Source of the DNA: Escherichia coli | Lineage (GTDB): Bacteria; Pseudomonadota; Gammaproteobacteria; Enterobacterales; Enterobacteriaceae | Assembly: GCF_003334815.1 (NCBI RefSeq) | Contig: NZ_QOWO01000024.1 | Direction: 5' to 3' (one strand) | Length of the DNA: 64,000 nucleotides | In this document: piece after piece, positions 36,274 to 36,474 of the stretch | Position numbering within the stretch: the stretch's first letter is position 1 | How the letters are laid out: every line of letters begins with the position of its first letter | Position numbers and translations under genes: made by a program | The notes under the pieces: model-generated | Seen by the model: the letters and a program-made list of their open reading frames with translations, nothing else | Told to the model about the DNA's origin: nothing | Database searches by the model: none

Positions 36274-36474
36274 TGCCGGATAAGGCATTTTACGCCGCAT
36301 CCTGTGCCTGATGCGACGCTGGCGCGTCTTATCAGGCCTACAAATCCGAGCCGTAGGCCGGATAAGGCGTTCACGCTGCATCCGGCACCCGGAGCCTGAT
36401 GCGACGCTGGCGCGTCTTATCAGGCCTACAAACCGAGCCGTAGGCCGGATAAGGCGTTTACGCCGCATCCGGCA
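36274..36474. repeat. BIME-type cluster of REP elements (nrdB-nrdA intergenic)
   Basis: gcctgatgcgacgctggcgcgtcttatcaggcctacaaa present twice, alternating with inverted gccgtaggccggataaggcgtt(c/t)acgc(t/c)gcatccggca units. Confidence 0.85.

Follow-up and report, generated by a model that had tools for sequence, protein, structure and literature searches.

This study analyzed a 64-kb stretch of Escherichia coli DNA (hereafter the window), in which the genes nrdA and nrdB lie on the minus strand and are separated by a spacer at 36250..36482 (233 bp). The window is K-12-like: it aligned in reverse orientation to the genome of E. coli K-12 MG1655 (NC_000913.3), and the 16 kb compared contained four mismatches, all of them outside the spacer. 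The source of the DNA is thus closely related to MG1655 or derived from it, and differs from the reference itself. The four single-base differences were located at approximately 38517, 39075, 42349, and 45833. The genes and signals around the spacer are as follows:

36483..38768, minus strand: nrdA, placed by RefSeq and the MG1655 comparison
36483..36485, minus strand: nrdA stop codon TGA, 9 nt (UAUUGAGAU) before the first REP stem
36247..36249, minus strand: nrdB start codon ATG, beginning at 36249
35119..36249, minus strand: nrdB (RefSeq), encoding 376 amino acids, with yfaE as the next gene downstream
36248..36283, plus strand: yoaM (b4779), an annotated small open reading frame (ORF) of 11 amino acids, antisense to the nrdB start

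The ribosome-binding site of nrdB (AGGA) was found within a 24-nt leader (36250-36273) that is clear of repeats. The TAA stop codon of yoaM falls within the truncated REP unit that adjoins nrdB. A preprint reports, on the basis of a lacZ fusion, that yoaM is translated and places a transcription start 174 nt upstream of it; the antisense transcript therefore probably enters the repeat block on the plus strand. The plus strand is also the one on which the Rfam naRNA4 model scored best.

The initial annotation had described approximately 200 bp of alternating inverted REP units between nrdB and nrdA. We identified five alternating units at 36274-36473 in this interval, and the parts of the array, ordered from nrdB to nrdA, are as follows:

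36274..36474, no strand assigned: the whole BIME-2 of five REP palindromic units, transcribed from the minus strand within the nrdAB mRNA
36274..36305, plus strand: truncated, degenerate Y-type unit adjoining nrdB, without the GTAG tail
36306..36341, minus strand: Z2-type unit identical to 36394-36429, forming the first 36 nt of the 39-nt repeat 36306-36344
36342..36352, no strand assigned: tail-to-tail linker of 11 nt, AAATCCGAGCC
36353..36386, plus strand: middle Y-type unit, GTAGGCCGGATAAGGCGTTCACGCTGCATCCGGC
36387..36393, no strand assigned: head-to-head linker of 7 nt, ACCCGGA
36394..36429, minus strand: Z2-type unit, reading GCCTGATGCGACGCTGGCGCGTCTTATCAGGCCTAC on the plus strand and forming the first 36 nt of the repeat 36394-36432
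36430..36439, no strand assigned: tail-to-tail linker of 10 nt, AAACCGAGCC
36440..36473, plus strand: Y-type unit nearest nrdA, GTAGGCCGGATAAGGCGTTTACGCCGCATCCGGC

The five units alternate strictly in orientation and read, from nrdA to nrdB, Y-Z2-Y-Z2-truncated Y. Each palindromic unit consists of two 14-nt arms that are 79-86% complementary, and the linkers between units are short: the tail-to-tail linkers measure 10-11 nt and the head-to-head linker measures 7 nt. The tetranucleotide GTAG/CTAC was present in four of the five spacer units and in all three units at the two other REP loci of the window; the exception was the truncated unit 36274-36305. The REP identity given to the cluster at the outset was thus borne out, with the correction that the nrdB-proximal unit is truncated. 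The two 39-bp copies that had been called near-identical (36306-36344 and 36394-36432, each comprising a Z2 unit and three more bases) are real, and the wording proved too weak because their identity is exact. These copies are nested in longer direct repeats, which measure 48 nt (94% identical) and 45 nt (93% identical), and Tandem Repeats Finder (TRF) detected an 87-bp period in the array with 1.9 copies and 96% matches. The array arose through tandem duplication of an 87-bp Y+Z2 unit.

A pattern search for the REP tail motif CTTATCMGGCCTAC, allowing up to two mismatches, returned eight matches in the window, compared with 0.39 expected, a count reached by none of 100 shuffles. Seven of the eight matches fell in three loci that had been named beforehand, namely the spacer, 43239-43320, and 34817-34852. 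The eighth match, at 9093, carried two mismatches and was judged by eye to be a chance occurrence. The REP head motif alone was unspecific (22 matches, compared with 9 expected). When a 451-bp query containing the spacer was searched against complete E. coli genomes, it matched at least 8 to at least 52 places per genome (median at least 34) in 5426 of the 5426 genomes. These results establish that the block between nrdA and nrdB belongs to a genome-wide REP family and is arranged as a BIME-2. The individual units were typed as Y or Z2 by their consensus sequences, and this typing agrees with the published classification of the element as BIME-2 and with the definition of that class.

The two other REP loci of the window are as follows:

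43239..43320, no strand assigned: BIME consisting of Y (43239-43272), an 11-nt linker, and Z2 (43284-43320), between the convergent genes yfaL and ubiG
34817..34852, no strand assigned: single REP unit with one tail mismatch (GTAGGCCAGATAAG...), between the convergent genes inaA and yfaE

Both loci had been proposed previously, the former as a second REP pair and the latter as a degenerate copy after inaA, and both descriptions held. At 43239-43320, both the Y and the Z2 unit are intact and are arranged tail to tail. The unit at 34817-34852, with its single mismatch, folds very well, with z scores of -8.5 and -7.7; it yielded an E value of 0.22 in a narrower Rfam scan. This unit lies 5 nt past the inaA stop codon and 12 nt short of the yfaE stop codon on the other strand, which places it within 15 nt of both convergent stop codons. 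When the whole window was scanned against Rfam at a permissive cutoff (E <= 0.1), REP-like matches appeared only at 36274-36515 and 43207-43332, and neither the tail-motif scan nor the permissive Rfam scan revealed further REPs in the 64-kb window beyond the three loci. An Rfam match to CRISPR-DR15 at 40485-40521, inside the coordinates of yfaL, had an E value of 0.96 and was treated as chance.

The published record already contains this element. A BIME-2 is defined as inversely oriented y and z2 REPs that are separated by a short linker, repeated in tandem, and variable in copy number among strains (PMC3333891). Supplementary table DS3 of a gyrase Topo-seq study (PMC6379681) lists the element as "BIMEs2 ... 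202 bp ... nrdA>-nrdB>" and records gyrase cleavage sites in it: two with ciprofloxacin, three with rifampicin plus ciprofloxacin, three with oxolinic acid, and none with microcin B17. The table further remarks "Espeli, Boccard 1997: 2 cuts". The neighboring entries of 81 bp and 35 bp have no cleavage sites; by size and spacing, they match the REPs that we located between yfaL and ubiG and between inaA and yfaE. According to the same paper, gyrase favors y units over z2 units, and the gyrase signals of BIME-2 elements go up, not down, when transcription is blocked. The nrdA–nrdB BIME-2 is therefore a known and catalogued element that is cut by gyrase according to published data.

The element between nrdA and nrdB, whose linkers are short, shares alternating Y and Z2 units with other members of its class, such as the araD–araA element in the same DS3 table. 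Like the rest of the BIME-2 family, it is tandem, intergenic, variable in copy number between strains, and cleaved by gyrase in vivo in the published data. It differs from the family in nothing essential; the unit on the nrdB side lacks the GTAG tail and 7 nt. The view that these repeats are ordinary extragenic palindromes was thus upheld by the GTAG/CTAC units, the fit to the BIME-2 definition, and the catalogue entry in PMC6379681.

The RNA of the spacer is strongly structured. The transcribed (minus) strand folded at -118.4 kcal/mol, compared with -88.5 ± 5.1 kcal/mol for shuffled sequences (z = -5.9), and none of 200 shuffles equaled this energy; folding of the intergenic transcript, a check that had been suggested for the REP assignment, thus supported it. 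Folded as RNA, single units and the array gave z scores from -4 to -8.5. A consensus scan for a hairpin followed by a T run on the minus strand of 36250-36482 returned no site, and the sequence 3' of the array hairpins is not rich in T. An intrinsic (Rho-independent) terminator was ruled out because no T run follows the hairpins. As the transcribed strand carries no such terminator, any attenuation would be REP-like, with a partial effect that depends only in part on Rho. A 2026 preprint (bioRxiv 10.64898/2026.03.23.713779) describes REP325 as a partly Rho-dependent attenuator that also stabilizes the upstream gene, and it finds that the effects of REPs depend strongly on context, with no uniform lengthening of mRNA half-life.

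Taken together, the best explanation of the block is, with high probability, the known K-12 nrdA–nrdB BIME-2, a noncoding element with a presumptive role as a local tuner. On the basis of other REPs and the geometry of the spacer, we infer that hairpins on the nrdAB-yfaE mRNA may tune the nrdA:nrdB ratio locally. They would block 3'-to-5' exonucleases and would partly attenuate read-through, which would favor the upstream nrdA segment. The first hairpin would also stall the terminating ribosome and thereby dampen NrdA synthesis. PMC12306157 cites a rule, attributed to Liang, Rudd and Deutscher (2015), by which ribosomes stall at a REP that lies within 15 nt of a stop codon, and refers to a transcript with the nrdAB REP as a previously reported case. 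As in the REPs covered by that rule, the first nrdA–nrdB hairpin is close to the stop codon: the mRNA stem of the nrdA-proximal Y unit begins 9 nt past the TGA of nrdA, counted to the first stem base. Stalling at the nrdA stop codon would be expected because the hairpin lies within 15 nt. Stabilization of the nrdA mRNA and stalling of NrdA translation would push NrdA output in opposite directions. On the DNA, the Y units would provide a strong gyrase site that is independent of transcription. A literature search for nrdA/nrdB together with REPs, tmRNA, or trans-translation returned nothing relevant.

The flanking genes were matched in 5426 of 5426 complete E. coli genomes, and the spacer between them was polymorphic. 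The alleles were distributed as follows:

146-241 bp: all K-12-type Y/Z2 alleles, approximately 3420 genomes (63%)
233 bp, with variants of 241 and 226 bp (226 bp in O157:H7): 5-unit alleles, approximately 47% (estimate)
146 bp: 3-unit allele, approximately 17% (estimate)
189 bp: different REP variants of the Nissle 1917 type, 286 genomes (5%)
88 bp: REP-less CCCTCTCCC...GGGAGAGGG palindrome, found in IAI1 and ST131, 1684 genomes (31%)

The percentages of the 5-unit and 3-unit alleles were estimated through evenly spaced sampling of the ranked matches among the 5426 genomes; a junction query designed to separate the two alleles was confounded, as BLAST joined two pieces. The alleles of 233, 241, 226, and 146 bp, together with a 61-bp allele, have common outer flanks. 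The occurrence of five, three, or one unit between the same flanks indicates that the array grows and shrinks through recombination or slippage between units. The Nissle-type allele, which was also found in E. coli 85.0412, comprises four units built from the REP variants GCCGGATGCGCTTCGCTTATCCGGCCTAC and GTAGGCTGGGTAGGGCG... and is alignable to the K-12 allele at only approximately 90%.

The repeat in the 88-bp REP-less allele is hairpin-forming, has no sequence relationship to REP, and recurs in the genome as a dispersed family (median of 11 places per genome). We refer to it provisionally as boxC-like, in view of its copy number. BoxC has been reported as a 56-bp family with approximately 32 copies in E. 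coli. The boxC-like repeat occupies the nrdA–nrdB slot in 1684 of the 5426 E. coli genomes and also in Enterobacter and Pseudocitrobacter. The right half of the Pseudocitrobacter spacer is similar to the 88-bp allele. Within the window, the boxC-like repeat is not present. As an unrelated hairpin repeat takes this place in 31% of E. coli, the nrdA–nrdB BIME-2 itself is presumably dispensable.

Spacers in other species were collected through a scan for the conserved nrdB start, with one genome per species, which yielded 120 loci. The spacer of Escherichia albertii contains a 5-unit BIME-2 of 240 bp in which the nrdB-side Y unit is intact. The intact GCCGGAT in this species indicates that the nrdB-side unit of K-12 lost 7 nt from its head arm. 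This loss apparently occurred by slippage between GGAT repeats, and the same 7 nt are missing from the O157:H7 allele at both head-to-head junctions. In addition, the apical stem of the first Y unit in E. albertii carries a compensatory change from C-G to T-A. In the Escherichia cryptic clade, one genome has three units, and the 61-bp spacer of another contains a single Y unit. In Salmonella, Citrobacter, and Klebsiella, the spacer measures 100-122 bp and holds one pair of REPs, in variants of their own, and boxC-like pairs occur in Enterobacter cloacae and Pseudocitrobacter. A spacer of 52-66 bp with one GC-rich hairpin and a T run was found in Atlantibacter, Cedecea, Buttiauxella, some Enterobacter, and Rodentibacter (Pasteurellaceae).

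Among 91 enterobacterial spacers, 41 contained REP tails, 14 contained boxC-like motifs, and 36 contained neither. Nearly all of the spacers were structured: the fold z score was below -2 in 89 of the 91 species (median -4.2), and the median distance from the nrdA stop codon to the start of pairing was 3 nt. Coding controls of the same length, taken from the same loci, reached z < -2 in 0 of 82 cases for nrdA and in 2 of 85 cases for nrdB. A strong hairpin after nrdA was also found in most of the Pasteurellaceae sampled. The terminator-like hairpins of other Enterobacteriaceae and Pasteurellaceae stand at the same place after the nrdA stop codon as the K-12 BIME and are likewise strong and GC-rich; their spacers, however, measure 52-66 bp and have one hairpin followed by a T run, whereas the K-12 BIME lacks the T run. 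The presence of such terminator-like hairpins inside a presumed single operon suggests an ancestral intercistronic attenuator. The REP-less alleles in 31% of E. coli, together with the many species that have a spacer of 52-59 bp, indicate that no REP-specific function is essential at this position.

These comparative data bear on the main rival account of function, in which the spacer is a neutral insertion hot spot. According to this account, which leaves the BIME-2 identity of the block unchanged, the repeats are selfish or neutral and have no selected function, and REP/BIME and boxC-like elements simply favor an existing hairpin or terminator; the elements are tolerated since nrdB translation is unaffected. 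The ease with which occupants have replaced one another agrees with it, as K-12-type REPs, a different REP set (286 genomes), boxC-like repeats (1684 genomes), and a simple hairpin all occur in the slot and the number of units varies among five, three, and one. REPs are also described as substrates of the TnpA-REP nuclease and as targets of insertion sequences (PMC3333891), and neutral insertion with a preference for pre-existing hairpins would give the same pattern. Nevertheless, the frequency of a strong hairpin in 89 of 91 enterobacterial species, compared with 0-2% of coding controls, suggests retention and not mere tolerance, and the compensatory stem change in E. albertii and the documented gyrase cleavage at the nrdA–nrdB BIME-2 also stand against a purely neutral element. 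We therefore regard the neutral account as possible although rather unlikely; the comparative data lean toward retention of the structure, which is not proof of selection or of a fitness effect.

The nrdA–nrdB slot may be kept filled with a strong hairpin by selection, with interchangeable occupants (a terminator-like hairpin, REP pairs, a BIME-2, or boxC-like repeats), a proposal that we consider doubtful. If it is true, the 5-unit, 3-unit, 1-unit, Nissle-type, and boxC-like alleles would form a series that sets different NrdA:NrdB ratios, and ribonucleotide reductase activity could then alter dNTP pools and the mutation rate between lineages. The nrdA–nrdB BIME-2 matters little by itself, being a textbook repeat at a catalogued locus. 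What this study adds is the allelic series in E. coli and the structured slot across 91 enterobacterial species. A natural allelic series in an essential operon offers a test bed for the effect of REPs on flanking genes, which is still debated.

A different role was considered in view of the Rfam results, namely that the block encodes a small RNA resembling naRNA4 that binds HU and aids nucleoid condensation. The Rfam model RF02564 (naRNA4) scored 76.4 bits at 36356..36426 on the plus strand, which exceeds its gathering score of 59.5, and matched over its full length (model positions 1-77 of 77). Weaker RF02564 matches covered all other units of the spacer. Qian et al. (2015) described naRNA4 as condensing the nucleoid in an HU-dependent manner and reported that REP elements contact one another, and the yoaM antisense transcript probably enters the BIME on the same strand as the match. 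However, naRNA4 was defined from REP325 in the yjdM–yjdN interval, and the yfaL/ubiG pair also reached 54.4 bits, just under the gathering score, at 43207-43269 on the minus strand. As each REP325 repeat consists of two palindromic units, a score against this model may be anticipated for any pair of Y and Z2. Moreover, the 2026 preprint, one of whose authors also took part in the original work, reports that deletion or overexpression of REP325/naRNA4 leaves the nucleoid volume unchanged and that there are no long-range REP-REP contacts. The absence of REPs from the nrdA–nrdB interval in 31% of E. coli also argues against such a role, which we consider very improbable.

The RF02564 match is a family resemblance of a REP pair and not a small RNA gene. 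The nrdA–nrdB element is built from the same kind of repeat unit as REP325, matches RF02564 over its full length, and, like REP325, stands between two co-directional genes of one operon. REP325, in contrast, contains six repeats of two units each, compared with 2.5 such repeats between nrdA and nrdB, and the nucleoid role that was proposed for naRNA4 is itself disputed by the preprint. The bona fide naRNA4 gene was rejected as a candidate, as the locus is nrdA–nrdB and not yjdM–yjdN. An Rfam naRNA4 match above threshold can thus simply mark a REP pair, and automated annotation could mislabel BIMEs on this basis.

The last alternative, that the repeats code for an extended NrdB N-terminus within a 453-aa ORF that starts with TTG at 36480 and stays open through the nrdB stop codon, has a negligible probability, because RefSeq places the NrdB start at the ATG at 36249 behind the AGGA ribosome-binding site, the NrdB N-terminus is conserved in more than 100 species in which the spacer upstream varies from 42 bp upward and differs in sequence family, the extension preceding MAYTTFSQ is translated REP sequence, and the extension is missing from strains with the 88-bp or 146-bp alleles. 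The mechanically called ORF 35119..36480 (453 aa, TTG start) was thus ruled out by comparative data as an artefact, as the initial annotation had held from the run of the nrdB frame through the repeats. Recognition of the nrdA–nrdB BIME-2 as noncoding has a practical value for annotation, as it explains this spurious nrdB ORF.
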